This document shows, piece by piece, positions 13,583 to 54,958 of a DNA stretch of 64,000 nt; the stretch's first letter is position 1, and each line of letters opens with the position of its first letter. The notes under the pieces are model-generated. The model saw only the letters and a list, made by a program, of their open reading frames with translations. It ran no database searches and was not told where the DNA came from. Position numbers and translations under genes: made by a program. Origin of the DNA: a virus; the IMG/VR virus record IMGVR_UViG_3300045988_075126, positions 1-64,000 of that record; one strand, 5' to 3'.

Positions 13583-14161
13583 ATGGCAAAACCGAAATTT
13601 GATTACAATGGCGATGCTTTCTACGATGAGATAGAACAGCTTGCAAAGCAAGGTCAGAAGGATTCTGAAATTGCCTACGCCCTTGGTTTGAAGTTTGGGG
13701 TTGACCTAAATCCACAGGTCTTCAACCGAATGAAAAACGGAAAATACGAGAATTGGAATGAAGACGAAAATGCGGAAAGAGGCGAAAGGATAACTCAATC
13801 CCTCGTGCGTGGCAGAGAATTTATTAATGCAATCGTGCGTGGCAGATTCCTTAAATGCGCCCTTGGAGGTGTCAAGGTAAAAGGCAAGACAACCACCAAA
13901 AGACACATGGTTGTAGATGGAGTTATGACAGATGATATAGTAGTGGAAACTAGAGAAACTGAGCAGGAGACTCCACCTAACGTACAAGCTCTTTCTACTT
14001 GGCTATTCCATTATGATATGACTTGGAGAGAGATACAGAGAGGTAAGAAGGATGAAGAGGAAAAGGGCATTCCTTTTGACCCTAAGAAAGGTATATCCGT
14101 CAATAAGTGGATTGAAAGAGAGATAGAACAGGAAGCAGAAGAGCAAGGGGAGGGTGAGTAA
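13583..14161 (+). CDS. Terminase small subunit (putative)
   Basis: 192 aa with an N-terminal HTH-like segment, immediately upstream of and abutting TerL. Confidence 0.65.
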   Translation: MAKPKFDYNGDAFYDEIEQLAKQGQKDSEIAYALGLKFGVDLNPQVFNRMKNGKYENWNEDENAERGERITQSLVRGREFINAIVRGRFLKCALGGVKVKGKTTTKRHMVVDGVMTDDIVVETRETEQETPPNVQALSTWLFHYDMTWREIQRGKKDEEEKGIPFDPKKGISVNKWIEREIEQEAEEQGEGE

Positions 14162-15598: not shown

Positions 15599-15669
15599 TT
15601 CACTTAAAAACTAAGTGAAAGGCATACGTAAATTAAAGTGTGTAGAAACCATGTTTATTATTACCTTTG
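15599..15669 (+). promoter_or_regulatory. Late-class promoter: TTCACTTA-N5-TAAGTGAA, with -7 TACCTTTG (15662-15669) 48 nt after AGTG
   Basis: Direct reading. Confidence 0.65.
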
Positions 15670-15687
15670 CTTCAAAAAGTTATAAGG

Positions 15688-20700: not shown

Positions 20701-23700
20701 GATGGCAACACCTATAAGTGGACTATCATTACAGATACCGACATCGCCAAAGCTCTATCCGATGCCAGCAAGGCACAGGAGACCGCAGATGGCAAAATGA
20801 AGGTGTTCAGTACACAGCCTATTCCGCCTTATCAGTTGGGCGACATTTGGGTAAACGCTACCTATCCTACAGATGGCAGCATCTACAAGAATGAAATCCT
20901 GCGCTGCCAGACTGCCAAGGCAAAAGGTTCGTCATTTGCCATCGCTGACTGGACTAAGGCTTCCAAGTACACCGATGATTCTGCCCTCAATATCTTCAAG
21001 GAAGAGTACAAAAACGATATGGCTAGCTACAAGGAGCAGCTTGATGAGAAAGTAGAGACCTGGTTCTACAACTATGCTCCTACTACTCAGAATAAGCCTG
21101 CTTCTGACTGGACTACCGATACATTGAAGTCGCAGCACGCTGGCGACCTGTTCTACAATACGTCTAATGGCTACACATACCGTTGGACGGGTACGGCATG
21201 GGCGAGAATCAAGGATAACGACATCAACACTGCTATGACCGCAGCAAGCAAGGCGCAGGACACGGCAGATGGAAAGCGTACCGTTTTCACCTCTCAGCCT
21301 ACTGTTCCTTATGACGAGGGCGATTTATGGGCTAGCGGCGGAGATGATGGCAAGACTCTGATGGTGTGCGTTAAGAGTAGAGCCACTGGCAGCTTCACCT
21401 CATCAGAATGGGTAAAGGCTAATGATTCCGACCTCAACGCATTCGCCAAGACCATAGAGGAGAGCTTGACGGGAATACGAGACCAGCTCGACAAGAAGGC
21501 TGAGACTTGGTATCAGCCTTCTGACCCGAGTACATCTTGGACTACCGATGATGCGAAGAAGGAGCATAAGGGCGACCTGTGGTATAACACAAACAACAAC
21601 CAGACTTTCTTTTGGAATGGTACGAAATGGGATAAACAGGATGTGCCTACCGAGGTCTTCGACAAGATAGATGGCAAATCCAGCATCTATGTAAGCAAGC
21701 CTGCATCCTATGAGGAACGTGACCTCTGGATTTTGGAAGCAGCATATACCCTCGGTGGTGTTGCATATTCCAAGGGCGAGCTTGTCGTGGCAACCAAGAG
21801 CAATGCTTCATTCAGCGCAGCCGATTGGACTAAGAAAGTGAAGTACACAGACGATACTGTAGCGAACGCAGCAAAGAAGGCAGCGGAAGAGGCGAAGAAG
21901 GCGGCAGATACCGCACAGACGAATGTTACGAATCTCGGCAAGACCGTTACAAGCAACAAGAAGGCATTCGATAATTATGTTACGGATGGCTATCTAGAGC
22001 CTTCTGAGATTGCGGCTATGGCGCAGGATTCCAAGCGACTTGAAGATGCTTTTGCAGCCGCCGAGAAATCTTACACTGAGGTGAAGGAAGCAGCGGTACT
22101 GAAGGACACCAAGGAACTCACTGACCTCAACACTGCTTTCGCTACCCTCACGACTGCCAAGACGGAACTCGTTACGTATCTCTCAGATATTTCGGCAAGA
22201 TACAATGCGGCTAATACTGAGAAAAAGGCTACCATCGTTTCAGCCGTAGGAACGAAGTTCACCAACTTCCAGTCAGCATACAGCGCATTTTATGACAAAT
22301 TGGGTTTGGCAAACGCCTATATCACTAGCAAGATATATGGCGACTTGAAGCAGAATATTACCGACCTTGCAGGCTACAAGTATATCAAGGACGCACTCGG
22401 TCAGACAACAGATATTGATGGCGGTCTTGTAATGACAACACTCCTTGCTTTGAGAGACGCAGACGGAAACGTTCAGAGTGGTATCAACGGAGCGATAGAC
22501 ACGAACAGAGGAAAGAAGAGCATCGCAACTTGGTGGGGTGGTCAGATGGTGGATAAGGACTACAATAGCGGAAGCCTTACTCCTGCTACTTCCCTCGTTC
22601 GCTTTGACGGTTCGGGCTATCTCGCAAATGGTGCAATCTGGTGGGACGTGGACGGAAAGGTTCACGCTGACCCTACATCATTTATCATCAGCGAGAAGAA
22701 TCTTGGCGCATACCTTGCATTCTTTGAGCCTACATGGAAGAGCGGTAGCAATGGCACTAACATAAAAGACCTTGTGGCTTTGACTCCGCAAGCTCCTTTT
22801 ACGACACTCAGCGTAAGCAATGATTTGTTGGTAGAGGGAAAGCTTAAATTAGGTAGTATTACCCTCAGTGTGGTAAATGGTGCTTTGAAGATTGACGGCA
22901 ATGTGTATTCCACAGGTGGAATGAGCGCATACGGCGATGGTACTAACAATGGTGGTGGCGGTGGCTTGGTCGCAAGCGTGAAGAGCTACACAGACATCAT
23001 CAAAGGCACGTATACAGACAATGACTTGGCAAGCATTCCTAACGCTTATGCCATCAAGGCTCTCAGCAATCGAATCGACAACATCAGTTCTGAACTTGGT
23101 GGTCTTAGCTTGGATTGGGCAAACATCACAGGAAAGCCTTCTACTTTCACTCCTAGCGCACACACGCACAAGTGGGTGGATATTACAGACCGTATCACCA
23201 AGGTTTCTCAACTTACGAATGATAGCGGCTACACCACAAACAAGGGAACGGTAACATCGGTTAAGCTAACTTTGCCAACTGGATTGTCTCTTGGTACGAC
23301 AAAGGAAATCACAACAAGTGGAACTTTCGCCATAAGCTTGACTTCGGGTTATTCCATCCCTACGACATCAAAGCAAGGGCAATGGGATTCTGCCTACAAT
23401 TGGTACAAATTAATGACTACCGATGAGGAAACAGCTGATGGTGTTATCAACAAGTGGAATGAGGTCGTGAATTTCCTTACTGGCATTGCGCAGACAGACA
23501 CCTTGGATGGCATACTCAGCGGCATCAACAATTCTATCACGGAAGAAGCTAACAGGGCAAAGAAGGCAGAGGGTGCAAATGCTACAAACATTGCCACAAA
23601 CAAGGCGAACATAACAACCTTGCAAGGCTACTTCACGAATGGCTCGGCGAAGTCCGCCATCAAGCTGACCAACGCACGTAAACTTTGGGGTAACAGCTTT

Positions 23701-26700
23701 GACGGAACAGCCGACATAAGCGGTAGCATCGTTGTGCCTAGTGGAAAGTACATCACTATTGGCAACATAAAGTTGGAGTATGATGCAACTAACAAAGCGT
23801 TGAAAATAACGAACACCTCGACCAACGAAGTTGCAAATCTTTATACTAGTGGTGGTGTATCTGCTTATGGTGTCGGAACTACATCTAGCGGTAGTACTGG
23901 AGGCGGTGGATTGAATGGCACGGTGAAATCATACAATGATGCCAAGAGCCTTACAAGCGAAAGTCTTAGCGAGGTTGCTAGTGCTTACTCTGTTGCTGCA
24001 CTCTACAGCAGCATCAATGATGCCATAGGTCGCATAAACACCTTGGAAGGAGGAAGTGCGACAAGCATAGAGGTTACAGGAAGTGGCAATGCGGTGACAG
24101 GTGTGTCGAAAAGTGGTACTAAACTGACATTTACAAAGGGAGCTACTTTCTTGACATCCCATCAAGACATCAGCGGAAAGAGTGACAAGACACATACGCA
24201 CAGCGTGAAGATTAATGGTGTCACTAAGACCATCGCAGCCACAGGTGGAACAGCCGTTGACTTGGGAACTTACCTTACTTCTCATCAGTCCTTGGCTGCT
24301 TACTTGAAGTCTGCCGATGCGGAGAAGACCTATAGCAAGTTGGGACACACCCACGCATTCAGCGAGATTACGGGAAAGCCAACAACACTTGCTGGCTATG
24401 GAGTCACCGATGGAGTCAATACGGTTACGCTTAGTGGCTCAGGGAACGCCGTTACTAGCGCAAGCATAGACGGTCACACCTTGACTTTGACAAAGGGAAG
24501 CACATTCTCCCTCAGCGGTCACACCCATACCTTCGCTAGCTTGACCTCAAAGCCTACTACAATAGCAGGATATGGCATCACGGACGCTTATACCAAGGCG
24601 CAAGTGGACTCGACCATTGCTAAGTATCTCCCTCTTGCAGGAGGAACGATAACAGGTGCGCTTACCGTCAACGGCATCGCTACCTTCAAGAGCAAGGTTG
24701 CCATTGGCGACATCTACATCATCAATGATGGAAGCGGCAATCTCTACGTTCAGAAGACGGACGGAAAGACCGCCGCCAACTTCTATGCGACAGGCGGCAT
24801 CACGGCTTTCGGTGCTTCTTCCGTCAGCGGTGGCACAGGAAGCGGATTGAACGGCTCAGTCCTTGGCTTCGAAAAGGCTACAGCCATGACTTCCGCCGAC
24901 AACGGAGACAGCAGCAAGACGGAAGTTTCATTCCTTGCTACTGCTTGGAGCATCAAGCAGCTCAACGACAAGATAAACGCATTCGGGACAGGCGTGTTCT
25001 CCGACTATCTTACGATAGCAGCTGCCAAGGCGACCTATCAGCCAAAGGGTAGCTATCTTACTTCGCATCAGACCATCTACGGCTTGACTATTCAGAAGAA
25101 TGGTACAAGCCTAGGCACTTACACCCCAAACTCTGCTGCGAAAACCATAAACGTAACCGTTCCTACCAAGTTGTCCGAACTCAGCAATGATAGCGGATAT
25201 ACTAAGAACACAGGTACGGTCACATCGGTTGCAGTCTCTGTCCCTACGGGGCTTTCGGTCAGTGGCTCGCCTATCACTACCAATGGAACTATTGCCATTG
25301 CCCTTGCTTCTGGTTACTCCATTCCTACTACTGCAAAGCAGACAGCTTGGGATGGTGCGGTATCAGCAAAGCATACTCATAGCAATAAGTCTGTACTGGA
25401 CGGCATTTCATCCACTAAGGTAAGTCATTGGAATAGTGCCTATGACTGGTACGCCCTTATGACTACTGACGAGGAGACTGCGGACGGAATTATCAATAAG
25501 TGGAACGAGGTGGTGAGCTTCCTCGCCAATATTGCGCAGACAGACACTTTAAGTGGTATCGTTGACGGAATCAACAAGTCTATATCTGACGAGGTAGCAA
25601 GAGCGAAAAAGGCAGAAGGGGTAAATGCTTCGGGCATATCCGCAAACAAAGGGAGTATCGCCACCTTGCAAGGTTACTTCACAAACGGTTCAGCGAAGAA
25701 GGCTCTCCAGCTTACTAATGCTCGCAAATTGTGGGGAAATTCGTTCAATGGCACTGCTGACATCAATGGAAGCATCATCGTGCCTAGTGGAAAGTATATC
25801 TCCATCGGTAACATCAAGTTGGAGTATGATGCAGCTAATAAGGCGCTGAAGATTACGAATACTACGACTAACGAGGTGGCAAACCTCTATACTAGTGGTG
25901 GTGTTTCTGCCTATGGTGTTGGGACATCCTCATCCAGTGGTGGCGGCTTGAACGGCAGTGTGAAGAGTTATTCAGATGCCTTGAAGCTCACATCAGAATC
26001 GCTGTCTGAGGTTGCTTCTGCCTACTCCATCAAGGCTCTTGATTCTCGTATCTCTAGCTTGGAAGGTGGTAGTGCTACTGCTATTTCTGTCAGCGGTAGC
26101 GGTAATGCGGTTACGTCTGTCACCAAGAATGGTACTACTATCAGCATAGTTAAAGGTAGTACGTTCTTAACTAATCATCAGTCACTTGATGGTTACGTTA
26201 ATGCAATATCTGTAAGTGGAAGTGGAAATGCTATCACGTCTGTATCTAAAAGCGGAAAGGGTATTACATTTACTAAAGGTGCTACTTTCTTGACTAGTCA
26301 CCAAAGTCTTGCTAACTATTATACCAAAAGTAGTGTAGATTCACTTCTTAGTGGTAAGTCGGCAACTAGTCATACACATAGTGTTAAGATTAACGGTATC
26401 ACTAAAACCATTGCGGCTAGTGGTGGAGATGCTGTAGATTTGGGAACTTATCTCACCGCACATCAAAGTCTCGCAGCTTATGCAACTCAGAATTGGGTTA
26501 AAAATGAAGCTACTGCTCATAACGCAGATATGGTAGATAATTATCACGCTAGTGGTTTGTTTACTGGTTTCAGTATTTCTGATGTTGCAAACAAGGTTAC
26601 TATTAGTATTGGTGGAACTTCTAAAGCACTGAATTTAGTAAGAGCTTTTCCTAGTGGTGTTGGAAACAATTTTAACGATATTGCAACACACGGGAATAGT

Positions 26701-29700
26701 ATGGGTATGTCTAATATTGCAGCACCTTATGCTAGTTCTACTGCTAACTATCAAACGTTGAATGGTTATGTTAATCCTAATGGACAAACTGGTTGGCATC
26801 ATTATATTAATCTGTCTTATACTGATAGTAATAATACGGCAACTTCTCCTAATATGTGGCAAACTCAGTTTGCTATAAAAGCTGGCACTACTGAAGTTTA
26901 TGTCCGTTCTAGAGCTGGAGGCAAGATAAGTAATGATGCAGCTTGGGCTGCTCCTTGGGTAAGACTTGCTAGAGTTACTGACAATGTAGCATCTGCATCA
27001 AAAGTTGCTAATGCTCTTTCTTGGAGCGGTTATAGTAGTGGTTCTTATAATGGTTCTGCTGTAAAGTCTATTAGTATTCCAAATAATACTAATCAGCTTA
27101 CTAATGGAGCAGGGTTCATTACATCTTCTGCTTCAATTACTGGTAATGCTGGAAGTGCTACTAAATTACAGAATGCTAGAACTATAAACGGAACATCGTT
27201 TAATGGTACAGCCAACATAGTAACTTCTTATTGGGGAACTGCTAGAAAGCTTTGGGGTAATAGCGTGAATGGTAATGCTGATGTAAATGGCAGTATAACT
27301 ATTGCTAATACTGATGGTGTTTATGTGCAAATTGGTGATGTCAGATTAGTTTATGATAAAGCTAATACTGCCATTAAAGTAGTTAAGTCTGATGGTACAA
27401 CCGCAGCTAACTTCTATGCTACTGGTGGCATTTCTGCCTATGGAGAGGGAAGCGCTGGAACAACAGGAAGCAACAACTTCTCGGCAAAGGCGTATGCCGA
27501 TTCCATCAAGCTCACAAGCGAGAACCTTAGCGAGATTGCAAGTGCCTATTCCATCGCCGTGCTTAACAACTCGTTGAACGCTGCCATTGGTAGAATCTCC
27601 ACCTTGGAGGGTGGTAGCGCAACAAGCATTGAAACCACAGGCTCAGGCAATGCCGTAACTAGCGTGTCGAAGAGTGGAACAAAGATAACCTTCACAAAAG
27701 GCTCTACATTCTCGCTCAATGGGCATACGCACGACTTCATTACCGTGGGGGCGAATCAAACTATCACGGCTACACAATACACAAAAAGCCGTCTGAGCGT
27801 GCGCCCTTACTACAACAGCGGTGGCCCGACTACATACGGAAACATCTTGGAGGTTGTCAGCGGAAATAGCGGCGGTGGTCAGCTTGGTATGGAATGGTCG
27901 GGAAGCCAAACCAAGACGGACGGAACGGACACCAACGTAGGCAAGTTGTATTATCGTAGCAAGCGAGATAATATGGCAGGCTGGACGGTTTGGAAGAGAC
28001 TTGCCTTCGCCGAGGAGCTTGCTTGGGGCAACATCAGCGGAAAGCCTACAAGTCTCAGTGGATATGGTATCACGGACGGTGTGAACGCCGTTAGCGTAAC
28101 AGGCTCGGGCAATGCCGTGACAGCCGCATCTGTTAGTGGGCATACCTTGACCTTGACGAAGGGTAGCTCATTCAGCTTGTCTAACCATACTCACTATATA
28201 GGAACGACACAGGTACAGGGCAGCAGTGCCGAGCAAGCATTGACTGGAATAACCAAGATTGACAACATCTTGAAGTTGTCAAAGGCTAGTGTCACCGTCA
28301 ACACAAGCTACAAGGCTGAGCAGAATCGCTTGGTGATTTATGGAAGTACCTATGGCAACGATGCAAACTACATCAAGTCTGCTGGAAAGCTGTCCTATGG
28401 CGATGGCGGTCCACAATTGGTTTTCTCAACTGGCGAGAACCCAGACGCAAGTGGCGTTCAATCGGCTGCATTGGTTTATACTGACCATGGCAAGATTGGA
28501 GCAGGAGTAAGCCTTTCGTTCGTGACGAACCAAGGCGATGCCTACTTTATTGCTCCACACATCAAGGCTCTCACGGCGTTCCAAGGAAACCTTGCGTGGA
28601 GCTATATCACCAACAAGCCAACCACTTTGTCGGGATTTGGCATTACGGATGGCTTGCGCTCGGTTACTAAGCCAAGTGGAAGCAATGTGTTCGTGACTGG
28701 CATATCCACCAGTGGAACAGCCATCACCTACACCAAGAGCTACACGAAGAAGAGCCTTTCTGTGGTGGGCACTTCGGGATGGACTAACGCATCGACCGAT
28801 GGCAACATTATTCCTGACATGAGCTTCATAGCTCATTGGAACGGAGCATATAGTGGCACAAGTTCAAACCTCGCCTATTGCAACAAGGGTGCTTTCGGCT
28901 CGTTTGCCATCAAGAACAGCCTTGCCTTCTCAGAACTCACAAGCAAGCCGACAACGATAAGTGGGTATGGCATTACTGATGCTTATACGAAGTCACAGGT
29001 GGATGCCATCGCCGCAAAGTACTTGCCTTTGACAGGTGGAACGCTCACAGGTCAGCTTAAGATTGTGGCAAGCGCATTGAAAGGTGCTTACAATGGATTG
29101 CTCATTGGCGATGATTGCTACATTGGTGATTGTAACTTTGGCAACACTATCGGCTTGATGGGCGTTGGCAACAACAACGCAGGAATGGTGAAGTTCGGCA
29201 AGGGAGGTATGCAATTCGGTTACAACGGCTCGAATCACATAGCTTCGACTACCGCACAATGGATAAACCTCAATGCGGATTTGCTCGATGGTTGGCACAA
29301 AGACAACATCGTATGGTCGGGAGCGGTAAACAGCAACACCGCAAACCTTTCCCACTATTGGGCGAAGTTGTTTGACATTACCGTCACAGGCAACCAATAT
29401 GATGATAGAAGTTTCACGTTCCTCTTCTCCAACGGATATAACGATACCTATTCGGTTGTCGTGTTGAGAATCCGTCAGAATGGAGCGAATGGCTCTGGGG
29501 CATACAACTTTGGCATATCCTTGCGTGAGTTGGTTGGAAACATGTCTTCAAGGTTGCGTGTGTACTACAACAATGCAACTGGCAATGTTCAACTTTGGGG
29601 AAATTGCCAAAATAAATATGGAAGTCTGTCTTACACTATCATCAAGAAGACAGGGCGCACGTCTGCCGATTTCACAAGCCAAGGAACTTTGGTGACAAAT

Positions 29701-32256
29701 ACATCGTTCTCTGCGGCTCAAAGCTTGCCAGCAACCACAGGGGATAGTCCTTATACCTTGCTTGATGGTGCTACGAGAATTGGCATCGTGAAGCAAGCAG
29801 ACCAACTTGTAACGGCTCGCTCGCTATGGGGTCAGTCCTTCAACGGAACAGCAAACGTGAGCGGCAACATGACAGGTGTGGGCAACATCAATACTTCCGC
29901 AGCACCAGCAGGAACTATCTACACAAACAACTGGTTCAGAAGCAAGGGAAGCACTGGTTGGTATAGTGAAGACCACGGCGGTGGTTGGTACATGACCGAC
30001 AACACTTGGATTCGCAGCTTTGGTAGCAAGGATGTATACCTCTCCAACAAACTTAGCGTGAATGGTAACGTCGGCATCGGAACGGCCTCACCATCTTACA
30101 AGCTGCATGTTGTTGGCGACATCTACACAACAACCAAGGTGAACATCAACGGCATCGTCTTGGAGAAGGATTCGGACGGTAACTTGAAGGTCAACGGAAA
30201 CCTCTATGCCACAGGTGGAATAAGCGCATACGGAACTAGCTCTGCTGGAAGTGGCGGTGGATTGAGCGGTAGCGTTCTCGCATGGGACTCCGCTATCAAG
30301 ATGCCTAACGCTACGAATGGAAGTTCCGACACTACCAAGACGGAATCATCTTTCTTGGCCAGTGCTTGGTCTATAAAGCAGCTTTACAACAAGGTTACTA
30401 GCTTGGAGGGTGGCTCGGCAATGAACGTAAGCGTTAGTGGAAGCGGCAACGCCGTGACCTCTATCAGCAAGAGCGGCACTACTATCAGCGTAGTTAAGGG
30501 TAGTACGTTCCTCACGGCTCACCAAAGCCTTGCCGGTTACATGAAGACTGCGACTGCGGATGCAAAGTATATGTATCATAGCCGCAATAACATCGTGTCC
30601 GACTTGAATAACTTCGCAACAAATGGTGCTGCTCATATCTATGAAATGAACGGCGTAACTAACAAGCCGAATGATAACTCTTGGATACAGGTAATGAACT
30701 GGGGAACGGGAGATGCAAGCTATGGTTTCTTGCTTGCCAATGAATACACTGCTAATGGTCACATGTACTTCCGTCAGAAAATTGCGGGTTCGTGGAAAGA
30801 TTGGAAGACCATCATCGACTCATCAAACATCGGGTCACAGTCGGTAAATTACGCTGCATCGGCGGGTTCTGTTGCTTGGACGAACGTAAGCGGAAGACCT
30901 AGCACGATGAAAAATCCAAGTGCTCTTTCTTGGAGCGGATATTCAAGCGGAAGCTATGATGGTAGTGCAGCAAAAAGCATAAGCATTCCGAACAACACGA
31001 ACCAATTGACGAATGGAGCAGGGTTCATTACATCTTCTGCTTCAATTACTGGTAATGCTGGAAGTGCCACGAAACTCCAAACCACAAGAACGCTTTGGGG
31101 ACAAAGTTTTAATGGAACGGCTAACATAAGTGGAAGCATGACAGGTGTCGGCGACATGACCTTGGACGCAGGGGCAAGGATAAAGCACGGTTCGGGCAAC
31201 CTTTACATCGGAAACTCGGACAACTCCAACTGGATAGGTGTTCAAGACATCTGTAGCCAGTCCTCCATCGGAGATGGCAACTGGAGCTTGCGAACGAGCG
31301 GAGCTGCGCATTTCAAGGACACGACAATCAACGGAACGGCGACTATTAAGAATTTACTTAGCCTTGTTGACGGCTCGCACAAAGGCTTGAAGATGGGAAG
31401 CACGTATATCTCATCCCTCGATGGTGAAGTTATCTTGCAAGGCAACACAGCCCTCCGATTCGGAAATGATGCATGGGACCACAACCAGTGGGCGGGTCTT
31501 AAGTACGACCATAGCAGCAAGACCGTTTACCTCGGCATTGCCGATGGAAGCATATTCAAGGCGAACAGTGCCCAAAGTGGGGGTGTCATCAACCTTAAGC
31601 AAGGAATAAGCTCCGTCTATACTCCAGCATTGTACGCTGGCGGCGACATTTATCACACAGGTGCATATAGAATGCTATGGAAGAATAGCAAAGCATCAAA
31701 GTATCTGAATGTGATGAACATATCGCAGGATGATAATGGCATTCTCACCATAGGCTACGGAAACTTCTCCAACAACAAGAATGTGGTACTTGAAGGCTAT
31801 AACCTTAACTTTCGAGTTGGCAACGATAGCGGAATGAAGTCCATGTGGCTTAATTACAACAATGGCAATCCTGTGCTGAGTTTGGATGGTAATTTCTATG
31901 CCACTGGCGGTGTTACGGCTTACAAGAGTTCCGATGAACGCTTGAAGCATGACATACACGGCGTTGACAGCTTGGCTATCATCAAGGCGATGGGTGGCAC
32001 GGTTGCATTCCGATACAATGCCGACAACAAGGATAGCATCGGTTGGATTGCCCAAAGGGTTCTTCACAACACCTTCATGCAAGACCTTGTGGAGAAAGAC
32101 GACAAGGGCTTCCTCAAAATCAACTATTGGTCTCCAAAGCTGATTGCCGTTGCCTTTGGTGCTATCGAGCAAGTTGACGATGAGGTGAGCCGCTTGAAGC
32201 GAAGAGTGAGAGACTTGGAAAACGAAGTTGAACAATTAAAAAGTGATAGATTATGA
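17713..32256 (+). CDS. Giant (4,847 aa) tail-associated (Tal-like N-terminus) / tail-fibre protein with a C-terminal S74 intramolecular-chaperone domain
   Basis: Single uninterrupted ORF; the N-terminal ~250 aa resemble the prophage-tail endopeptidase/Tal region; many fibre-type repeats; C-terminus 'YKSSDERLKHDI...' is the S74 autoproteolysis motif. Confidence 0.9.
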   Translation: MKTFKEIDIKYYDNSGNVQVRCTVPVTQEASVHYELMQSHYCKLSFNLSRPTYFLRGDFIETPYGRFELIDLTKAKDNDTIGYSYEIQFDAYYRKLKNKILKYRPNTGSQESTFSLTSKISTHIEVIMKNLAYYAKLDKSYLYDPNFEGEGTDYTYVIDASVDANAAKLITYSNTSILDAIANIAQTFGCEWWFEGNILHFGTCENTNAITDFRLNDNIVSMSSSQSQSTYANRVYAFGAARNLPSGYKNDADADITKDGVVEKRLMLPNSAECSDKNKQLLAENGFELKNGYIQVSGLREDQYVEGVTTNDDIYPRNLIKTSKVTSYEKDVEDESTPEEGDYIKRTFYRVNSLAIVNEDGEKTGDMAFRKAYILSGKNLHIVFQSGSLNGMDFECEFNPDGVSEILKDDDGNPILKDGKEQINPKSQVFEIVANEDYGRFLPDITLHPKDGDTFVLYNWDSTKLGDTLVSSASNELLTDAIKDLKKSMIDPTTYTCTAEANYSYNQGRGNLHGVGDRVNLYNKGYGDSYRASRIIGYEFCLDIPYDGAKYYVGEKPSYSRLNAMESKIEELVYNGQSYLNGNGGSGRSIYIIKSYDSITPTDYNVFSAKAVDEQRLNKTKDDTAKGTITWEKVQKLLSGLLVGNFNNENGGSWTPDTEGRSHLITDYLEVRMKAIFEELVIKKTSTIGGKEIISPAGGVVAHKVEEVTVTYNNVSQKAYRCYFLAEQEGDAVDNDFSVNDQVRSESFNVRKGTYHKVGNHFYWRLVIGRDEEPVELEGKKYHYIDLSDTDCATASDVPAKGDVLSQCGNRTDVERQNCLIFSAVDTYSPFVSLYHGINSYSFANKEYVEYGVNKQTNKAFFNVYGDMYVGDRPTKENGYEGSSYIKYDSAAKQVSIKGKLSAKSTVDGKELSQYIKENSAGGLTEEQVNNLIKNSQVIADLQNQVDGAIETWFYDGVPTLKNAPASSWTTDKEKDTHLGDLYYDNKTGKAYRFAKDGNTYKWTIITDTDIAKALSDASKAQETADGKMKVFSTQPIPPYQLGDIWVNATYPTDGSIYKNEILRCQTAKAKGSSFAIADWTKASKYTDDSALNIFKEEYKNDMASYKEQLDEKVETWFYNYAPTTQNKPASDWTTDTLKSQHAGDLFYNTSNGYTYRWTGTAWARIKDNDINTAMTAASKAQDTADGKRTVFTSQPTVPYDEGDLWASGGDDGKTLMVCVKSRATGSFTSSEWVKANDSDLNAFAKTIEESLTGIRDQLDKKAETWYQPSDPSTSWTTDDAKKEHKGDLWYNTNNNQTFFWNGTKWDKQDVPTEVFDKIDGKSSIYVSKPASYEERDLWILEAAYTLGGVAYSKGELVVATKSNASFSAADWTKKVKYTDDTVANAAKKAAEEAKKAADTAQTNVTNLGKTVTSNKKAFDNYVTDGYLEPSEIAAMAQDSKRLEDAFAAAEKSYTEVKEAAVLKDTKELTDLNTAFATLTTAKTELVTYLSDISARYNAANTEKKATIVSAVGTKFTNFQSAYSAFYDKLGLANAYITSKIYGDLKQNITDLAGYKYIKDALGQTTDIDGGLVMTTLLALRDADGNVQSGINGAIDTNRGKKSIATWWGGQMVDKDYNSGSLTPATSLVRFDGSGYLANGAIWWDVDGKVHADPTSFIISEKNLGAYLAFFEPTWKSGSNGTNIKDLVALTPQAPFTTLSVSNDLLVEGKLKLGSITLSVVNGALKIDGNVYSTGGMSAYGDGTNNGGGGGLVASVKSYTDIIKGTYTDNDLASIPNAYAIKALSNRIDNISSELGGLSLDWANITGKPSTFTPSAHTHKWVDITDRITKVSQLTNDSGYTTNKGTVTSVKLTLPTGLSLGTTKEITTSGTFAISLTSGYSIPTTSKQGQWDSAYNWYKLMTTDEETADGVINKWNEVVNFLTGIAQTDTLDGILSGINNSITEEANRAKKAEGANATNIATNKANITTLQGYFTNGSAKSAIKLTNARKLWGNSFDGTADISGSIVVPSGKYITIGNIKLEYDATNKALKITNTSTNEVANLYTSGGVSAYGVGTTSSGSTGGGGLNGTVKSYNDAKSLTSESLSEVASAYSVAALYSSINDAIGRINTLEGGSATSIEVTGSGNAVTGVSKSGTKLTFTKGATFLTSHQDISGKSDKTHTHSVKINGVTKTIAATGGTAVDLGTYLTSHQSLAAYLKSADAEKTYSKLGHTHAFSEITGKPTTLAGYGVTDGVNTVTLSGSGNAVTSASIDGHTLTLTKGSTFSLSGHTHTFASLTSKPTTIAGYGITDAYTKAQVDSTIAKYLPLAGGTITGALTVNGIATFKSKVAIGDIYIINDGSGNLYVQKTDGKTAANFYATGGITAFGASSVSGGTGSGLNGSVLGFEKATAMTSADNGDSSKTEVSFLATAWSIKQLNDKINAFGTGVFSDYLTIAAAKATYQPKGSYLTSHQTIYGLTIQKNGTSLGTYTPNSAAKTINVTVPTKLSELSNDSGYTKNTGTVTSVAVSVPTGLSVSGSPITTNGTIAIALASGYSIPTTAKQTAWDGAVSAKHTHSNKSVLDGISSTKVSHWNSAYDWYALMTTDEETADGIINKWNEVVSFLANIAQTDTLSGIVDGINKSISDEVARAKKAEGVNASGISANKGSIATLQGYFTNGSAKKALQLTNARKLWGNSFNGTADINGSIIVPSGKYISIGNIKLEYDAANKALKITNTTTNEVANLYTSGGVSAYGVGTSSSSGGGLNGSVKSYSDALKLTSESLSEVASAYSIKALDSRISSLEGGSATAISVSGSGNAVTSVTKNGTTISIVKGSTFLTNHQSLDGYVNAISVSGSGNAITSVSKSGKGITFTKGATFLTSHQSLANYYTKSSVDSLLSGKSATSHTHSVKINGITKTIAASGGDAVDLGTYLTAHQSLAAYATQNWVKNEATAHNADMVDNYHASGLFTGFSISDVANKVTISIGGTSKALNLVRAFPSGVGNNFNDIATHGNSMGMSNIAAPYASSTANYQTLNGYVNPNGQTGWHHYINLSYTDSNNTATSPNMWQTQFAIKAGTTEVYVRSRAGGKISNDAAWAAPWVRLARVTDNVASASKVANALSWSGYSSGSYNGSAVKSISIPNNTNQLTNGAGFITSSASITGNAGSATKLQNARTINGTSFNGTANIVTSYWGTARKLWGNSVNGNADVNGSITIANTDGVYVQIGDVRLVYDKANTAIKVVKSDGTTAANFYATGGISAYGEGSAGTTGSNNFSAKAYADSIKLTSENLSEIASAYSIAVLNNSLNAAIGRISTLEGGSATSIETTGSGNAVTSVSKSGTKITFTKGSTFSLNGHTHDFITVGANQTITATQYTKSRLSVRPYYNSGGPTTYGNILEVVSGNSGGGQLGMEWSGSQTKTDGTDTNVGKLYYRSKRDNMAGWTVWKRLAFAEELAWGNISGKPTSLSGYGITDGVNAVSVTGSGNAVTAASVSGHTLTLTKGSSFSLSNHTHYIGTTQVQGSSAEQALTGITKIDNILKLSKASVTVNTSYKAEQNRLVIYGSTYGNDANYIKSAGKLSYGDGGPQLVFSTGENPDASGVQSAALVYTDHGKIGAGVSLSFVTNQGDAYFIAPHIKALTAFQGNLAWSYITNKPTTLSGFGITDGLRSVTKPSGSNVFVTGISTSGTAITYTKSYTKKSLSVVGTSGWTNASTDGNIIPDMSFIAHWNGAYSGTSSNLAYCNKGAFGSFAIKNSLAFSELTSKPTTISGYGITDAYTKSQVDAIAAKYLPLTGGTLTGQLKIVASALKGAYNGLLIGDDCYIGDCNFGNTIGLMGVGNNNAGMVKFGKGGMQFGYNGSNHIASTTAQWINLNADLLDGWHKDNIVWSGAVNSNTANLSHYWAKLFDITVTGNQYDDRSFTFLFSNGYNDTYSVVVLRIRQNGANGSGAYNFGISLRELVGNMSSRLRVYYNNATGNVQLWGNCQNKYGSLSYTIIKKTGRTSADFTSQGTLVTNTSFSAAQSLPATTGDSPYTLLDGATRIGIVKQADQLVTARSLWGQSFNGTANVSGNMTGVGNINTSAAPAGTIYTNNWFRSKGSTGWYSEDHGGGWYMTDNTWIRSFGSKDVYLSNKLSVNGNVGIGTASPSYKLHVVGDIYTTTKVNINGIVLEKDSDGNLKVNGNLYATGGISAYGTSSAGSGGGLSGSVLAWDSAIKMPNATNGSSDTTKTESSFLASAWSIKQLYNKVTSLEGGSAMNVSVSGSGNAVTSISKSGTTISVVKGSTFLTAHQSLAGYMKTATADAKYMYHSRNNIVSDLNNFATNGAAHIYEMNGVTNKPNDNSWIQVMNWGTGDASYGFLLANEYTANGHMYFRQKIAGSWKDWKTIIDSSNIGSQSVNYAASAGSVAWTNVSGRPSTMKNPSALSWSGYSSGSYDGSAAKSISIPNNTNQLTNGAGFITSSASITGNAGSATKLQTTRTLWGQSFNGTANISGSMTGVGDMTLDAGARIKHGSGNLYIGNSDNSNWIGVQDICSQSSIGDGNWSLRTSGAAHFKDTTINGTATIKNLLSLVDGSHKGLKMGSTYISSLDGEVILQGNTALRFGNDAWDHNQWAGLKYDHSSKTVYLGIADGSIFKANSAQSGGVINLKQGISSVYTPALYAGGDIYHTGAYRMLWKNSKASKYLNVMNISQDDNGILTIGYGNFSNNKNVVLEGYNLNFRVGNDSGMKSMWLNYNNGNPVLSLDGNFYATGGVTAYKSSDERLKHDIHGVDSLAIIKAMGGTVAFRYNADNKDSIGWIAQRVLHNTFMQDLVEKDDKGFLKINYWSPKLIAVAFGAIEQVDDEVSRLKRRVRDLENEVEQLKSDRL
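20557..21800 (+). repeat. Three tandem ~150-165-aa Trp-rich repeats inside the fibre gene
   Basis: 'ETWFY..P...WTTD....H.GDL(Y/F/W)YN...G..Y.W.G..W' seen three times. Confidence 0.75.
23206..24166 (+). repeat. Fibre module copy A1 (~320 aa)
   Basis: 'NDSGYT.N.GTVTSV...WYKLMTTDEETADGVINKWNEV...LYTSGGVSAYGVG...FLTSHQ' is highly similar to 25174-26183. Confidence 0.85.
25174..26183 (+). repeat. Fibre module copy A2 (~335 aa)
   Basis: Diverged duplicate of 23206-24166 lying ~2.0 kb downstream. Confidence 0.85.
27103..27158 (+). repeat. 56-bp exact DNA repeat, copy 1
   Basis: AATGGAGCAGGGTTCATTACATCTTCTGCTTCAATTACTGGTAATGCTGGAAGTGC, identical at 31012-31067. Confidence 0.9.
31012..31067 (+). 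repeat. 56-bp exact DNA repeat, copy 2
   Basis: Identical to 27103-27158; flanking protein sequence 'ALSWSGYSSGSY.GSA.KSISIPNNTNQLTNGAGFITSSASITGNAGSATKLQ' is also duplicated. Confidence 0.9.
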
Positions 32257-36154: not shown

Positions 36155-36232
36155 CAGTTGTTTTGGTGTGTCTCACCTTTTTAACAATGCAAAGATACGA
36201 CAAAACGGATATTCTTGCAAATAAATTAATGC
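36155..36232 (-). promoter_or_regulatory. Early-class promoter (CATTAATTTATTTGCAAG, -7 TATCTTTG at 36190-36197) plus leader motif 36155-36181
   Basis: Minus-strand reading AAAAGGTGAGACACACCAAAACAACTG. Confidence 0.65.
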
Positions 36233-45532: not shown

Positions 45533-46582
45533 ATGAAGATACGGACATTTCAACTTTGTGCTGGGTATGACTCTCAACTGATGGCTTTAGAGCGGTTGAA
45601 AAAGAAACATTCTGATTTCGATTACGAGTGCATCGGTTGGTCGGAGATAGAGCCAAGTGCAATAGCTTTGCATAACGCTTGCTTTCCTCATCTATCCGGC
45701 AAGAACTTTGGTGACATGACAAAGATAGATTGGAGCAAGGTTGAAGACTTTGACTTGCTGACATATTCAACACCTTGCCAGTCTGTTTCGCAAGCCGGAA
45801 AGCAGGAAGGAATAGAGGAGGGAAGTAATACCCGTTCCTCTATCCTTTGGTTCACAAGAAACACCATTATTACCAGGAGACCGAAATACCTCTTAATGGA
45901 GAATGTAGAGGCTTTGGTTCAAACAAAGTTTATCGGGTTCTTCAACAAGTGGCGCAAGGAGTTGGAATCCTACGGATATGTTAACTATGCTAAGGTGGTA
46001 AATGCAGCCGACTGCGGTGTTCCTCAGAACAGAAAGCGTGTCTTCATGCTCTCTATACGAAACGATGGTGATAAGATAGATTATCATTTTCCGAGAAAGA
46101 TAAAGCTGGAGAAACACTTAGTTGATGTCTTGGAGGAAAATGTGGACGAGAAGTACTTTTTGAGCGATGCCCTGCTATGTAAAGAGAAGTTTGTGTCAAA
46201 TGAAAGGAAAGAGCCTATGAGTGCAGCTATAAGAACTCGTTCTGAGGGGAAGTGGATAAAAGGCGAAATGCATAGTCCAAAGGTCGAGCTTGGAAAGAAT
46301 ATAGCCAATACCATTACATCTGCGAGCAAGGACTCCTTGGTTGTGCTTGGAGAGACAAGGTTGCGCATTAGGCGTTTGACTCCGAGAGAACTCTTCCGCT
46401 TAATGAACGTTGACGAAGAATACATAGACAAGATGCTTGAAAGTGGAGTGTCGAAGTCAAGTCTTCAAAAGGCTGCTGGAAATTCGATTGTCGTAGCTTG
46501 CATGGAGAGAATATTCAAGGAACTTTGGTTTTCTGAGAGTAATGTTAAGGTCGCTGATGATGGTCAGCTATGTCTATTTTAA
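45533..46582 (+). CDS. dcm: DNA (cytosine-5)-methyltransferase
   Basis: Motif I 'FQLCAGYDS', IV 'STPCQSVSQAG', VI 'LMENVEAL', VIII 'QNRKRVF', X 'AAGNSIVV'. Confidence 0.92.
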   Translation: MKIRTFQLCAGYDSQLMALERLKKKHSDFDYECIGWSEIEPSAIALHNACFPHLSGKNFGDMTKIDWSKVEDFDLLTYSTPCQSVSQAGKQEGIEEGSNTRSSILWFTRNTIITRRPKYLLMENVEALVQTKFIGFFNKWRKELESYGYVNYAKVVNAADCGVPQNRKRVFMLSIRNDGDKIDYHFPRKIKLEKHLVDVLEENVDEKYFLSDALLCKEKFVSNERKEPMSAAIRTRSEGKWIKGEMHSPKVELGKNIANTITSASKDSLVVLGETRLRIRRLTPRELFRLMNVDEEYIDKMLESGVSKSSLQKAAGNSIVVACMERIFKELWFSESNVKVADDGQLCLF

Positions 46583-47701: not shown

Positions 47702-47818
47702 AATTTGATTAATATGGTTACAAAAACTTTCAAGTGTTTGAACGCATAAAATGCAAAAATCTACTAAATGAATGGTTGTATTAATGCTTAAAGATTAAAA
47801 TACTTTAAACACGTATAT

Positions 47819-47914
47819 AAATACATTAAATAACTTGCATATTTCGAGATTTGTTTGTATCTTTGCAATGTAATTAAGAGACAAATTTAAATGGTGAGAC
47901 ACACCACAAAAACT
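47819..47914 (+). promoter_or_regulatory. Early-class promoter (AAATACATTAAATAACTTGCA, -7 TATCTTTG at 47858-47865) plus leader motif 47888-47914
   Basis: AAATGGTGAGACACACCACAAAAACTG, 7 nt before the ATG. Confidence 0.65.
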
Positions 47915-47921
47915 GGAGATA

Positions 47922-48233
47922 ATGACAAAGAAAGAAATTTTAAAACAATGGCTTGATGAACCGAAAGTGAAATATTGTGGCAAATCAAATTTCACGTTAG
48001 GTTATGGTGATGGCTGGGATTGGGTTAAAGATACCCTACGACCAGCTATCACGAAGAATGCGATGTTCCTTAGATTCTTGGAGCATGGTTTCCGTGAGAT
48101 AGAGGGATTTCTGAAATCGAAGACCGGAAAGCCAAGCGAAGAGGATTGCACCTTGTATTCTGTTGGTTACAAAGATGGGGTCAAGGATGCCATGATTGCA
48201 ATTAAGAATAGATTTGAAAAATTAAAATCCTAG
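47922..48233 (+). CDS. Hypothetical protein (103 aa)
   Basis: ATG ORF after promoter and leader. Confidence 0.7.
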   Translation: MTKKEILKQWLDEPKVKYCGKSNFTLGYGDGWDWVKDTLRPAITKNAMFLRFLEHGFREIEGFLKSKTGKPSEEDCTLYSVGYKDGVKDAMIAIKNRFEKLKS

Positions 48234-48500
48234 TTCCGGAAGCCTTTGATTAGGCTACAGCGGTTATCCATTCAATCGTCTGGAGCGGATTAGCCTCAGC
48301 CCCGAATGGAATTGGGAGCTACGTTAGGGATGAATACATAGGCACGTCAGGATGTCCGTCCAAGTTCTGACCTCTGCGGTCGATGATTAAAAGCGAGGAA
48401 ACTTGCGGTGTTGTCGGCAAGAAACCATCCTATAACATTGGCGATGGGCGCACAACCACCTTTCGAGGTGAGATTTATTTATTAATTTAAATTAATTTTT
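48234..48500 (+). ncRNA. Candidate IscB omegaRNA (HEARO-type) region
   Basis: 267-nt ORF-free, G+C-richer, helix-rich segment directly upstream of iscB on the same strand (e.g. TCCATTC/GAATGGA 48267/48304, GTCAGGA/TTCTGAC 48346/48365, CACC-TTTCGA-GGTG 48457-48470); exact ends and guide not determinable by eye. Confidence 0.65.
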
Positions 48501-49748
48501 ATGATTTACGTAAGGAACAAGGAAGGTAAGGCATTGATGCCAAGCGAGCGTGGAGCGAGGATAGGTTATCTTCTTCGCCATGGTAAGGCTCATGTTGTCA
48601 GCCGTGTTCCGTTTATCGTTCAGTTGGATTATGAGAGCACCACCTATACGCAGGAAGTGAGCCTTGGCATTGATGCTGGCTCAAAGCACATAGGCGTTTC
48701 GGCTAGTTCCGAGAAGAAGGAGCTGCTTGCAGCGCAGGTTGAGTTAAGAAGTGATGTTGTGAACTTGCTTTCTGCTCGCAGGGAGTTGAGACGGACAAGG
48801 CGAAACCGCAAGACACGTTACCGCAAGGTTCGTTTTGATAACCGCAAGAAGAAAGATGGTTGGCTTGCACCCAGTATTGAGCAAAAGGTTGAGAGCCACT
48901 TGAAGGTTATCCGCTTGGTTCATAAGTTACTTCCAATTACGAAGACCACTATTGAGGTTGCTCAGTTCGATGCTCAGAAAATCAAGAATACCGACATCAA
49001 GGGTGAGGAGTATCAGCAGGGCGAACAGATGGGCTTTTGGAATGTTAGGGAGTACGTCTTGGCAAGGGATGGGCACAAGTGCATTCACTGCAAGGGTAAG
49101 AGCAAAGACCCTATCTTGAATGTTCACCATTTGGAGAGCCGCAAGACTGGTAGCAATTCCCCAAGCAATCTCGTAACGCTTTGCGAGACCTGCCACAAGG
49201 CTTACCATCGTGGAGAGTTCGACTTGAAAGTCAAGCGTGGCACTACTTTGCGTGATGCTGCGGTGATGAACATTATGCGTTGGGCGGTCTATGAGCGAGC
49301 GAAGGCAGAGTTTGGGAATGTTCACTTGACTTATGGTTACATAACTAAGCACACTCGCATAGAGAATGGTATTGCTAAGAGCCATGCAGCCGATGCTTTC
49401 TGTATTGCCAAGAACGTAAATGCAATGCGGTTGGAATTCTTCTTCATGTGCCGTTGTGTTCCCCGTCATACGAGAGCCTTGCATGTAGCGAATCCAAAGA
49501 AAGGTGGCATCCGCAGAAGCACGATAGCCTCTCATAAGATAGGTAAGTCTCGCTTCCAGCGTTTCGACATGGTGCGGTGGATGGGCGAGGAATGCTTTAT
49601 CTTTGGCAGCACGCATGGTAATGTTGTTTTGCGTAAAATTGATGGTGTAAAGGTGCATGAAACGCAAGCTGTGAACATCAAGACGATAAAGTTTTTGAGG
49701 AGATTGAGAAATAATATTTTAGTTAAAGAAATAGTTTTTATAAGTTGA
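48501..49748 (+). CDS. iscB: IscB RNA-guided nuclease (PLMP domain, split RuvC with inserted HNH)
   Basis: 'EGKALMP' (PLMP), 'LGIDAGSKHIG' (RuvC-I), Arg-rich bridge 'RRELRRTRRNRKTRYRK', 'IEVAQFD' (RuvC-II), 'CIHCKG...NVHHLESR...NLVTLCETCHKAYH' (HNH), 'KSHAADAFCIA' (RuvC-III). Confidence 0.9.
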   Translation: MIYVRNKEGKALMPSERGARIGYLLRHGKAHVVSRVPFIVQLDYESTTYTQEVSLGIDAGSKHIGVSASSEKKELLAAQVELRSDVVNLLSARRELRRTRRNRKTRYRKVRFDNRKKKDGWLAPSIEQKVESHLKVIRLVHKLLPITKTTIEVAQFDAQKIKNTDIKGEEYQQGEQMGFWNVREYVLARDGHKCIHCKGKSKDPILNVHHLESRKTGSNSPSNLVTLCETCHKAYHRGEFDLKVKRGTTLRDAAVMNIMRWAVYERAKAEFGNVHLTYGYITKHTRIENGIAKSHAADAFCIAKNVNAMRLEFFFMCRCVPRHTRALHVANPKKGGIRRSTIASHKIGKSRFQRFDMVRWMGEECFIFGSTHGNVVLRKIDGVKVHETQAVNIKTIKFLRRLRNNILVKEIVFIS

Positions 49749-49754
49749 ATTATT

Positions 49755-50045
49755 ATGGATTTAGGAAAGGCGATTAAGACAATGAGGGTAAGCAAGGGCT
49801 TGACCCAACGACAACTTGGTAAGGCTATCGGTTGTAGCGAGACAAATATGTTGTTTATGGAGACCGGAAGAACGTTTCCACGTAAGGGTAAGATTGATGC
49901 AATATGCAAGGTATTGGAGATTCCGATGTCATATTTGTTGATGTTCTCTATTACACCGGATGATATTCCGGAAGATAAGCAGAGTTTGTATACAAGCATC
50001 GTTGAGCCGATGCGTAACGAATTTATTAGGGAGTTGTTGCGATGA
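49755..50045 (+). CDS. XRE-family HTH protein (96 aa)
   Basis: 'MRVSKGLTQRQLGKAIGCSETNMLFMETG'. Confidence 0.8.
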   Translation: MDLGKAIKTMRVSKGLTQRQLGKAIGCSETNMLFMETGRTFPRKGKIDAICKVLEIPMSYLLMFSITPDDIPEDKQSLYTSIVEPMRNEFIRELLR

Positions 50046-50275
50046 AGAAAGGCTATTATTTTGTGGCTAAGTATGTCAAGAATGGCATAACACGAATATG
50101 TACAGGTACACAAGAGACGATTGAAGGCTATTTTGATTTCGTCAGTGCTAGTAATTTTATAGCAAAGGAACATAATGTTGATTTCGAAGACGTAATTGTA
50201 ACTTTTTGGTCTGAGATTAATTCAATAATGTTAGATAAATATAGGAAAACATTAGGAGAGCAGAAAAATGGTTGA
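50042..50275 (+). CDS. Hypothetical protein (77 aa)
   Basis: 4-nt overlap with the upstream gene. Confidence 0.6.
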   Translation: MKKGYYFVAKYVKNGITRICTGTQETIEGYFDFVSASNFIAKEHNVDFEDVIVTFWSEINSIMLDKYRKTLGEQKNG

Positions 50276-50456
50276 ATTCGAGTACGAAGGAAATATCATT
50301 TGGAAAAATTACGACTTTCATTTTATGCCTTGTGTAGGAGATAAAGTTGTGATTAACAATCTGACATACAAGATTAAGTCTCGTGTGTTCAAGTGTGATG
50401 GGAAGATAGTTAAAGTGGTTTTAAAAAAGGTAGATAATGAAATTACGAATAGTTAA
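50268..50456 (+). CDS. Hypothetical protein (62 aa)
   Basis: Overlapping operon packing. Confidence 0.55.
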   Translation: MVEFEYEGNIIWKNYDFHFMPCVGDKVVINNLTYKIKSRVFKCDGKIVKVVLKKVDNEITNS

Positions 50457-54853: not shown

Positions 54854-54958
54854 AAATACATTAAATAATTTGCATGTTTCGGATATTCTTTGTATCTTTG
54901 CATCGTAGTTAAGAAACAAGGTTACTAATTAAAAAGGTGAGACACACCATAAAAACTG
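54854..54958 (+). promoter_or_regulatory. Early-class promoter (AAATACATTAAATAATTTGCATG, -7 TATCTTTG at 54893-54900) plus leader motif 54932-54958
   Basis: AAAAGGTGAGACACACCATAAAAACTG, 10 nt before the ATG. Confidence 0.65.

Follow-up and report, generated by a model that had tools for sequence, protein, structure and literature searches.

The DNA analysed here, called the window throughout, is a 64,000-nucleotide (nt) stretch comprising positions 1 to 64,000 of IMG/VR virus record IMGVR_UViG_3300045988_075126, and it carries a 1.52-kb insertion that encodes an IscB RNA-guided nuclease together with its omegaRNA. IscB is the ancestor of Cas9. The insertion is almost certainly an IscB/omegaRNA element of the IS200/IS605-ISC type that lacks the transposase TnpA and resides in a temperate gut phage. 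Nuclease and RNA scaffold have both stayed intact under purifying selection. The insertion has discrete boundaries and is polymorphic in near relatives, and its family occupies many sites. On the mechanism proposed below, it would use its RNA guide to home into, or compete with, related phages, a reading that we hold, from comparison of sequences, with a probability of roughly 0.6. Its main parts are as follows.

48229-49754, plus strand: the element, a 1.52-kb insertion that replaces 10 nt of the unoccupied allele.
48501-49748, plus strand: iscB, 415 amino acids (aa), from a PLMP-type N-terminus to the C-terminal region, with NCBIfam, Pfam and PDB matches.
48229-48480, plus strand: the omegaRNA scaffold, with the HEARO match at 48278-48456 and a 3' terminator-like hairpin at 48457-48470, then a T-rich tract.
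48212-48228, plus strand: the predicted guide segment of about 16 nt (boundary +/-1), flank-derived and overlapping the 3' end of the gene at 47922-48233.

The 415-aa protein is a bona fide IscB with intact RuvC and HNH residues. It matched the NCBIfam equivalog model NF040563 (guided_IscB) over residues 2-302 with 348.7 bits against a cut-off of 175 (E 2.7e-104), and Pfam identified RRXRR (E 7e-60) and HNH (E 6e-8) in the same protein. Models for Cas9 did not recognise a protein of this length, the scores being 14.6 bits versus a cut-off of 100 for Cas9 and 20.8 versus 375 for Cas9d. The best matches among solved structures were IscB chains (7UTN, 7XHT and others; E about 1e-45), with the RuvC-I, RuvC-II, HNH and RuvC-III motifs aligned; the alignment ends near residue 333, and the putative C-terminal region that would interact with the target-adjacent motif (TAM) lies beyond it and cannot be aligned by sequence. 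All motifs quoted in a first-pass annotation made from the sequence alone (KALMP, GIDAG, the Arg-rich stretch, IEVAQFD, the HNH string and SHAADAF) are present in the open reading frame (ORF) with their residues intact. KALMP, at residues 10-14, makes the N-terminus PLMP-type, an Arg-rich bridge helix follows RuvC-I, and the HNH domain also contains Cys4. The catalytic residues are D58 in RuvC-I, E152 in RuvC-II, H209/H210 and N223 in HNH, and H295 and D298 in RuvC-III, all of them invariant in 30 close copies. The ORF is unbroken in every one of these 30, with lengths from 404 to 424 aa, and the median pairwise ratio of nonsynonymous to synonymous substitution (dN/dS) among them is 0.10. Regional values are 0.04 for HNH and 0.12 for residues 311-400; dN/dS stays between 0.04 and 0.12 everywhere but in the last 15 codons, where the end hairpin of the element overlaps the gene and the ratio is relaxed to 0.43. 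The identical window protein was recovered from 205 assembly blocks of gut metagenomes, with unchanged gene context.

The omegaRNA is encoded in the 267-nt gap 5' of iscB on the same strand, as the first-pass annotation had expected. This gap (48234-48500, with the upstream stop codon at 48231-48233) is indeed non-coding, containing no plus-strand ORF of 40 aa or more, and the G+C content is raised as described, to 0.43-0.49 across 48050-49700 compared with 0.30-0.40 in the flanks. A covariance-model check returned a full-length match to the Rfam HEARO model (positions 1-211) with 77.7 bits and an E-value of 2.9e-15, formally 5 bits short of the gathering score; this match and the guided_IscB match both lie far beyond chance. 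Alignment of 30 omegaRNA copies, drawn from close, guide-only and distant (45-59% aa identity) relatives, gave an RNAalifold structure of 43 pairs, 23 of which show compensatory changes. In the pair count 97.1% of cells were paired and the covariation score was 0.406; shuffled controls gave 0.171, with 0/500 reaching the observed score, and slid partners gave at most 0.086. The final helix (48457-48470) and its T-rich tract resemble an intrinsic terminator situated directly before the iscB start.

The guide was placed by the standard criterion, a drop of conservation at the 5' end of the scaffold. Across about 30 copies conservation falls exactly at the motif ATTCAAG, and the sequences upstream of it, around 20 of them distinct, are unrelated between sites. 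The sequence 5' of the scaffold differs at each site, as a guide drawn from the flank would, and comparison of the sites shows the putative guide to be copied from the DNA immediately left of each insertion. The first-pass annotation had assigned the guide to the omegaRNA 5' end; its placement inside the 267-nt gap did not stand, the predicted guide being instead the last ~16 nt of the upstream gene. The 16-mer TTTGAAAAATTAAAAT (48213-48228) occurs once in the window. Relatives with an unoccupied site carry it exactly or, in most, with 1 mismatch, directly followed by AGGAGGTTAAAT, which fits the earlier suggestion that the guide could target the empty site of related phages. Among unoccupied alleles, the sole variable base within 40 nt left of the window insertion site is an A/T difference inside the guide match, 9 nt from the junction.

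The boundaries of the element were obtained, as had been proposed, by comparison with relatives that lack it. Locus L001, from the GenBank gut phage MT835610.1, is collinear with the window on both sides and has only AGGAGGTTAA in place of 48229-49754. The same unoccupied allele is found in nine more IMG/VR loci, the flanks being joined by 10-11 nt. A protein-guided scan of viral contigs identified at least 29 loci with an IscB at 82-92% aa identity, and in every one of these close loci the DNA similarity to the window element begins sharply at about 48232 and ends between 49731 and 49754. The fetched loci contain at least about 20 different guide-side junctions; the site survey covers the matches listed in the collection scans, and its locus and junction counts are lower bounds. 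Site A, the position in the window, is shared by L026, and sites A' and A'' (L007 and L008) have the same right junction as site A. Site B lies inside the C5-methylase gene (L009, L010 and L012), and site C in a 62-aa ORF (L015, L016, L017, L024, L029 and L030). At sites B and C the window itself is unoccupied, and phages unoccupied at site A, such as L001, carry the element at other sites. Presence/absence polymorphism with the target kept in unoccupied alleles was observed for sites A, B, C, E, F and K; for sites G, I and M, scans of the collection turned up no unoccupied allele. The first-pass annotation had described the module as fixed in its operon. The insertion is instead sharply bounded and polymorphic, and its family sits at about 20 junctions; that description may be rescued in part, in that the window copy is without the consensus end motifs and has probably lost transposase-dependent mobility.

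No target duplication was seen at the junctions, site J coming closest to a clean insertion. At most sites 4-7 nt separate the right junction from the co-oriented start codon that comes next downstream, and the left junction falls at variable depth in the upstream gene. The flanks are mosaic: an identical site A junction stands beside alleles of the downstream XRE gene that are only 78% identical, a pattern compatible with homing and not specific to it. The XRE gene and its neighbour (49755-50280) occur in two allele classes, about 78% identical, one in the window, L026, L001, L009, L012, L015 and L024 and the other in L007, L008 and L010; each class occurs with and without the element. In L009, L010 and L012 (about 5685-7260; window equivalent 45806-46575) the C5-methylase gene is truncated by the element directly after the PCQ catalytic motif and its 3' ~770 nt are replaced, and these phages have probably lost the C5 methylase. 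Site J (L103-L160, flank GTTCACATTTTAAGAAATTGAT) has a conserved leader after which different phages continue into at least five alternative gene starts that are unrelated to each other, the IscB element among them, and looks like a hot spot of cassette exchange.

Examination of the unoccupied alleles also pointed to a candidate TAM. The sequence after the guide match is TAGG at site A (with a 7-nt left motif), ATGG at A', AAGG at B, ATGA or ACGA at C, ATAG at D, ATGG at E and ATAA at K. At site F an N-W-R-R motif had been predicted in writing beforehand, and ATGA was found in 107/109 alleles. In total, N-W-R-R follows the guide match at 6-7 of 8 sites (background 0.19; binomial P 1e-3 to 7e-5). 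We therefore take N-W-R-R, from the unoccupied alleles, as a candidate TAM similar to known IscB TAMs. For OgeuIscB the TAM is NWRRNA (PMC12660989). The GstIscB TAM is TTCAT, written 5' of the transposase-defined left end (bioRxiv 10.1101/2023.03.14.532601); on the iscB strand this would read ATGAA, 3' of the target, which by our own derivation agrees with NWRRNA. The element itself starts with ATTC (CCTA in the window), placing pyrimidines where the motif needs purines, the family having TC at the RR positions. The variable base at site C is position 2 of the TAM-like motif (ATGA versus ACGA; window 50284-50287); this variant and that in the site A guide match may be escape variants. By the same matches, the window itself is a predicted target of its relatives' guides, at three places.

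50268-50283, plus strand: target of the site C guide (relatives L015, L016, L017, L024, L029 and L030), 16/16 match, then ACGA.
45791-45806, plus strand: target of the site B guide (L009, L010 and L012) in the C5-methylase gene, 15/16 match, then AAGG.
50433-50448, plus strand: target of the site D guide (the omegaRNA-only mini-element of L007), 15/16 match, then ATAG.

At its left end the family has ATTCAAG and a hairpin that shows some compensatory changes; at its right end it has a GGAAG/CTTCC hairpin and T-W-R-R-A-T. The left-end consensus is (A)TTCAAGTTYCGGAAGCC..., before which the sequence is unrelated from site to site, and the right-end consensus is ...GTGGAAGAAAGGACTTCCGAAAG plus a hexamer, usually TTGAAT, that holds the iscB stop codon. 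In the window both ends deviate from this consensus.

48229-48234, plus strand: left terminal motif, degenerate (CCTAGT), from the left-junction alignment; family consensus ATTCAAG.
49720-49744, plus strand: right-end hairpin region, degenerate, inside the iscB 3' end, from the right-junction alignment; consensus GTGGAAGAAAGGACTTCCGAAAG, window TAGTTAAAGAAATAGTTTTTATAAG.
49745-49754, plus strand: terminal hexamer TTGAAT (with the iscB TGA stop), TAM-like N-W-R-R, then TATT; the XRE ATG is at 49755.

The family ATTCAAG is a transposon-encoded TAM-like motif at the omegaRNA end. Its mutation in the window created the TAG stop (48231-48233) of the upstream gene; L026, also at site A, keeps TTCAAG, and there the upstream ORF would extend by 8 codons. 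The terminal hexamer depends on the site, appearing as TTGAAT, TTGGAT/TAGGAT, TCGAAT or TTAAAT, and its site C form is similar to TAGATA in the unoccupied allele. This variation and the site C resemblance indicate that the hexamer probably comes from the target and represents the TAM at which the element first inserted. Because the left motif and the right hairpin are both lost, a transposase could probably not move the window copy, which retains its nuclease and guide. Two other accounts of the ends were considered and rejected. Terminal inverted repeats with a TA duplication (IS630/mariner-type) do not fit, as the base before the conserved A varies and the duplication is absent; the inverted similarity (ATTCAAG... 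/ ...CTTGAAT-like) arises because the TAM and TAM-like motifs are near-palindromic. Nor is ATTCAAG a target-derived left TAM, being missing from unoccupied alleles except L107 at site K. L107, otherwise unoccupied, reads GAAACA ATTCAAG GGTTAG..., and the other unoccupied alleles have ATAAAAG; this 7-nt left motif without an element could be a footprint or a pre-existing variant.

The statement of the first-pass annotation that no TnpA is present was confirmed: when scanned in six frames for the Y1 transposase motif, neither the window nor the ~13-kb loci of close relatives gave a match, and the same scan detected TnpA beside distant IscBs in L033, L038 and L178 as a positive control. The element has space only for the omegaRNA and iscB. 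Like most known IscB elements (PMC13565253), it is non-autonomous. The distant IscBs (42-50% aa identity; L033 at about 7400, L038 at about 1671 and L178, from C. difficile, at about 7402) have the Y1 TnpA downstream on the same strand, and these three are autonomous versions of the same element kind. In a survey of one genome per species across 185,579 species, the nearest bacterial relative was 59% identical and came from a Prevotellaceae metagenome-assembled genome (MAG); the exception is the same element on a 15.6-kb contig that had been binned to a Lachnospiraceae MAG. With no close bacterial copy other than this contig, the IscB family looks phage-borne.

Shorter forms of the element were also identified. 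Four omegaRNA-only mini-elements of 336-337 nt, without iscB, occur at site E (L046, L068 and L097) and at site D (L007), and they consist of the left end, the full omegaRNA, the terminator-like hairpin (CATCCCTTCGGGGATG, then a T-rich tract) and the right-end hairpin.

L046 6525-6861, minus strand: mini-element.
L068 7405-7741, minus strand: mini-element.
L097 4765-5101, minus strand: mini-element.
L007 7947-8280, plus strand: mini-element.

Two of the four (L097 and L007) lie on contigs that also hold a full IscB element, for which reason the mini-elements may supply extra guides in trans. Furthermore, deletions repeatedly abut the omegaRNA 5' end while leaving the right junction shared: 18 nt in L021/L022, 25 nt in L004/L018, and 54 nt and about 258 nt when L026 is compared with L007 and L008 (window equivalents 47972-48228). 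Each such guide-side deletion alters the guide, and the derived alleles often have a mutated left motif (TTTAAG, CTTAAG or ATTTTG).

The mechanism that we propose would begin with entry of the element into intergenic TAM sites, presumably by a Y1 transposase acting in trans. The operon transcript would then be processed to an omegaRNA whose 5' ~16 nt (48212-48228) could pair with the same sequence in insert-free related phages or prophages, where the match would adjoin a purine-rich N-W-R-R in place of the ATTC/CCTA start of the element. IscB would cut the unoccupied allele during co-infection or superinfection of a lysogen, a step supported by the TAM pattern, and its own locus would be spared because the scaffold start is not a TAM. 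Recombination could subsequently copy the element in (homing), replacing the DNA between the cut and the next conserved gene, or the competitor might merely be disabled. New sites and guides would arise rarely, either when a host Y1 transposase acts in trans or by guide-side deletions; a deletion starting at N-W-R-R would generate a new guide that is again next to a TAM in all other genomes. As a speculation, such deletions might come from a one-ended reaction in which a transposase acts on the omegaRNA-side end and a TAM nearby. The window copy, with its ends decayed, would probably now rely on homing alone. A bolder version, which we put forward only tentatively, is a natural gene drive, guided by RNA, that would replenish its guides by itself through deletions or one-ended events and receive trans guides from mini-elements, amounting to a multi-guide arsenal.

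Several observations weigh against the homing or competition reading. No occupied allele is a simple insertion: 10 to ~770 nt of the unoccupied allele are missing (A, 10; K, 13; F, 44; C, 146; E, ~215 by alignment; B, ~770), and neither plain TnpA insertion nor plain homing alone explains the loss of this adjacent DNA. At the same site, iscB of the window and of L026 differ with a synonymous divergence (dS) of 0.42, exceeding the divergence of some flanks (97% identity), which implies a complex history. The putative TAM rests on 8 sites, with the call at site A hinging on a 1-nt boundary choice. Site J has mostly ATAT or TATG, with N-W-R-R in only a minority of the alternative alleles, and the A(T) shared at junctions could reflect microhomology instead of a TAM. 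The HEARO score, finally, is 5 bits below the Rfam gathering score of 83.

The missing DNA also counts against an ordinary IS200/IS605-type passenger, moved by a host Y1 TnpA in trans and restored by IscB after excision (restorative homing between sister genomes) with no role between different phages: none of the occupied alleles is a simple insertion beside a TAM. Much about the family resembles such a passenger: the end structures (left hairpin and right GGAAG/CTTCC hairpin) are conserved, the TAM-like terminal hexamers vary by site as if target-derived, the different junctions number about 20, distant IscBs from viral contigs and from C. difficile adjoin a Y1 TnpA, and a restorative mechanism has been demonstrated for GstIscB (bioRxiv 10.1101/2023.03.14.532601). 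However, TnpA was found neither in the window nor in the loci of close relatives, the survey of 185,579 species with one genome each turned up no bacterial copy above 59% bar one short binned contig, and the window copy has neither end motif, yet its exact protein is widespread and under selection. We consider this explanation unlikely.

Slightly less likely again is a domesticated phage weapon, in which IscB and its omegaRNA are kept only to destroy competing related phages or prophages without copying in. Co-orientation in an operon of DNA-modification and regulatory genes, decay of the end motifs in the window group, strong purifying selection and guides that match relatives would all suit this role, and phage nucleases in interference competition provide a precedent (for example PMC11620839). 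But the same junction occurs in very different flank haplotypes and the family is at many sites, which argues for spread of the element itself and not for vertical retention alone. Cleavage followed by recombination would copy the element in any case, so that the weapon differs from the homing or competition element in degree and not in kind. An inactive relic, whether a pseudogene of IscB or an insertion sequence in decay, is very improbable: the degenerate end motifs of the window copy, a HEARO score slightly under the gathering score and the lack of TnpA could suggest decay, whereas the ORF is intact in 30/30 copies with invariant catalytic residues, dN/dS is 0.10, and the omegaRNA helices are kept by compensatory changes.

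The remainder of the window encodes genes of a temperate tailed phage, including an integrase (371-1552, plus strand), an excisionase-like protein, a large terminase (14161-15444) and a portal protein (15667-17100); one ORF of 4847 aa (17713-32256, plus strand) lies downstream of the terminase and portal genes. A tRNA-like Rfam match (35-118, plus strand, 35.6 bits), not called by ARAGORN, is directly upstream of the integrase gene and suggests a tRNA-associated attachment site or prophage end. The element stands in a co-oriented block of small genes and is flanked by genes for RNase H, the C5 methylase, the XRE regulator and a D12 methylase. The XRE-type helix-turn-helix gene (49755-50045; Pfam HTH_31, E 5.5e-10) starts 6 nt past the iscB stop, precisely as first annotated. 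Upstream of the element, segment 47819-47914, the early-class promoter and leader of the first-pass annotation, has a second copy, 81% identical, at 54854-54958 and occurs in most related loci. The repeat unit spans 47790-47921, with weaker matches at 2499-2583, 6317-6341, 6677-6703, 11527-11617 (minus strand) and 36155-36184 (minus strand). This repeated leader segment is probably a shared regulatory cassette. A sigma-70 promoter scan performed no better than shuffles, its consensus leaving out Bacteroidota-type promoters. A minus-strand DUF3085 RNA match (E 0.9) was dismissed as chance.

The molecule itself is a canonical IscB/omegaRNA pair, and the system closest in behaviour is GstIscB/ISGst5 of Geobacillus stearothermophilus (Meers et al., bioRxiv 10.1101/2023.03.14.532601; Nature 2023). 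GstIscB is of the same size class and has the same catalytic numbering, its nuclease-dead mutant being D58A/H209A/H210A (bioRxiv 10.1101/2023.03.14.532601), and Geobacillus relatives are 52% identical to the window protein. There too the omegaRNA lies upstream of the ORF and has a flank-derived guide, and the TAM, read on the iscB strand, belongs to the ATGAA/N-W-R-R type. Self-cutting of that element is prevented by a TAM-like motif that it contains at its omegaRNA end, and it has non-coding derivatives (PATEs). In contrast to ISGst5, the window family resides in phage genomes and not in bacterial chromosomes, and its cognate TnpA was not found; its ORF extends across the end hairpin, with the stop codon inside the terminal hexamer, its occupied alleles are always without some adjacent DNA, and its mini-derivatives keep the whole omegaRNA and terminator. 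OgeuIscB-omegaRNA (Altae-Tran et al. 2021; PDB 7UTN, 7XHT) aligns with the window IscB in domain order and catalytic motifs and likewise has a HEARO-class omegaRNA, and its NWRRNA TAM is compatible with the motif proposed for the window family. The window protein, at 415 aa versus 496, is about 80 residues shorter and can be aligned only to about residue 333.

In its population pattern the element recalls the free-standing homing endonuclease genes of phages (for example T4 SegF/SegB, as reviewed in PMC13565253), which are likewise polymorphic cassettes between conserved genes, with the target kept in unoccupied relatives, mosaic flanks and replacement of adjacent DNA. Unlike those endonucleases, which recognise their sites through protein, the window element would use a guide RNA and a short motif, and the insertion itself would provide self/non-self discrimination. 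The same logic underlies an IS605 gene drive in plasmids that is powered by TnpB (Mears et al., bioRxiv 10.1101/2025.02.20.638934, summarised in PMC13565253) and the proposed 'transposon non-restorative homing': a guide-directed nuclease cleaves the orthologous empty site of a co-resident replicon, and the element is copied into it without TnpA. The TnpB drive is an experimental plasmid system, whereas the present case concerns IscB in a natural phage population and draws on comparative evidence. A 2026 review treats homing of OMEGA elements into co-infecting phages as a theoretical category, with experimental support from the TnpB plasmid system (PMC13565253). We found no earlier report of IscB elements in phages in the literature searched, which is not proof of their absence. 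To our knowledge, laboratory demonstrations of the natural role of IscB are confined to insertion sequences of bacteria.

What is unusual here is the setting, a widespread phage lineage of the human gut without a transposase in which population evidence points to guide-directed spread. The family offers a natural data set for homing between phages: dozens of alleles with and without the element, guides that are defined and turn over, a candidate TAM, and guide-only elements that may act in trans. The compact 415-aa IscB and its omegaRNA, evidently functional to judge by their conservation and accompanied by many natural guide variants, are also of interest for genome editing and gut-phage engineering. 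Should the gene-drive version hold, each guide-side deletion allele would be automatically armed against all genomes without the deletion, its parent included, and a multi-guide phage arsenal would represent a step from the single-guide transposon nuclease towards array-based systems.

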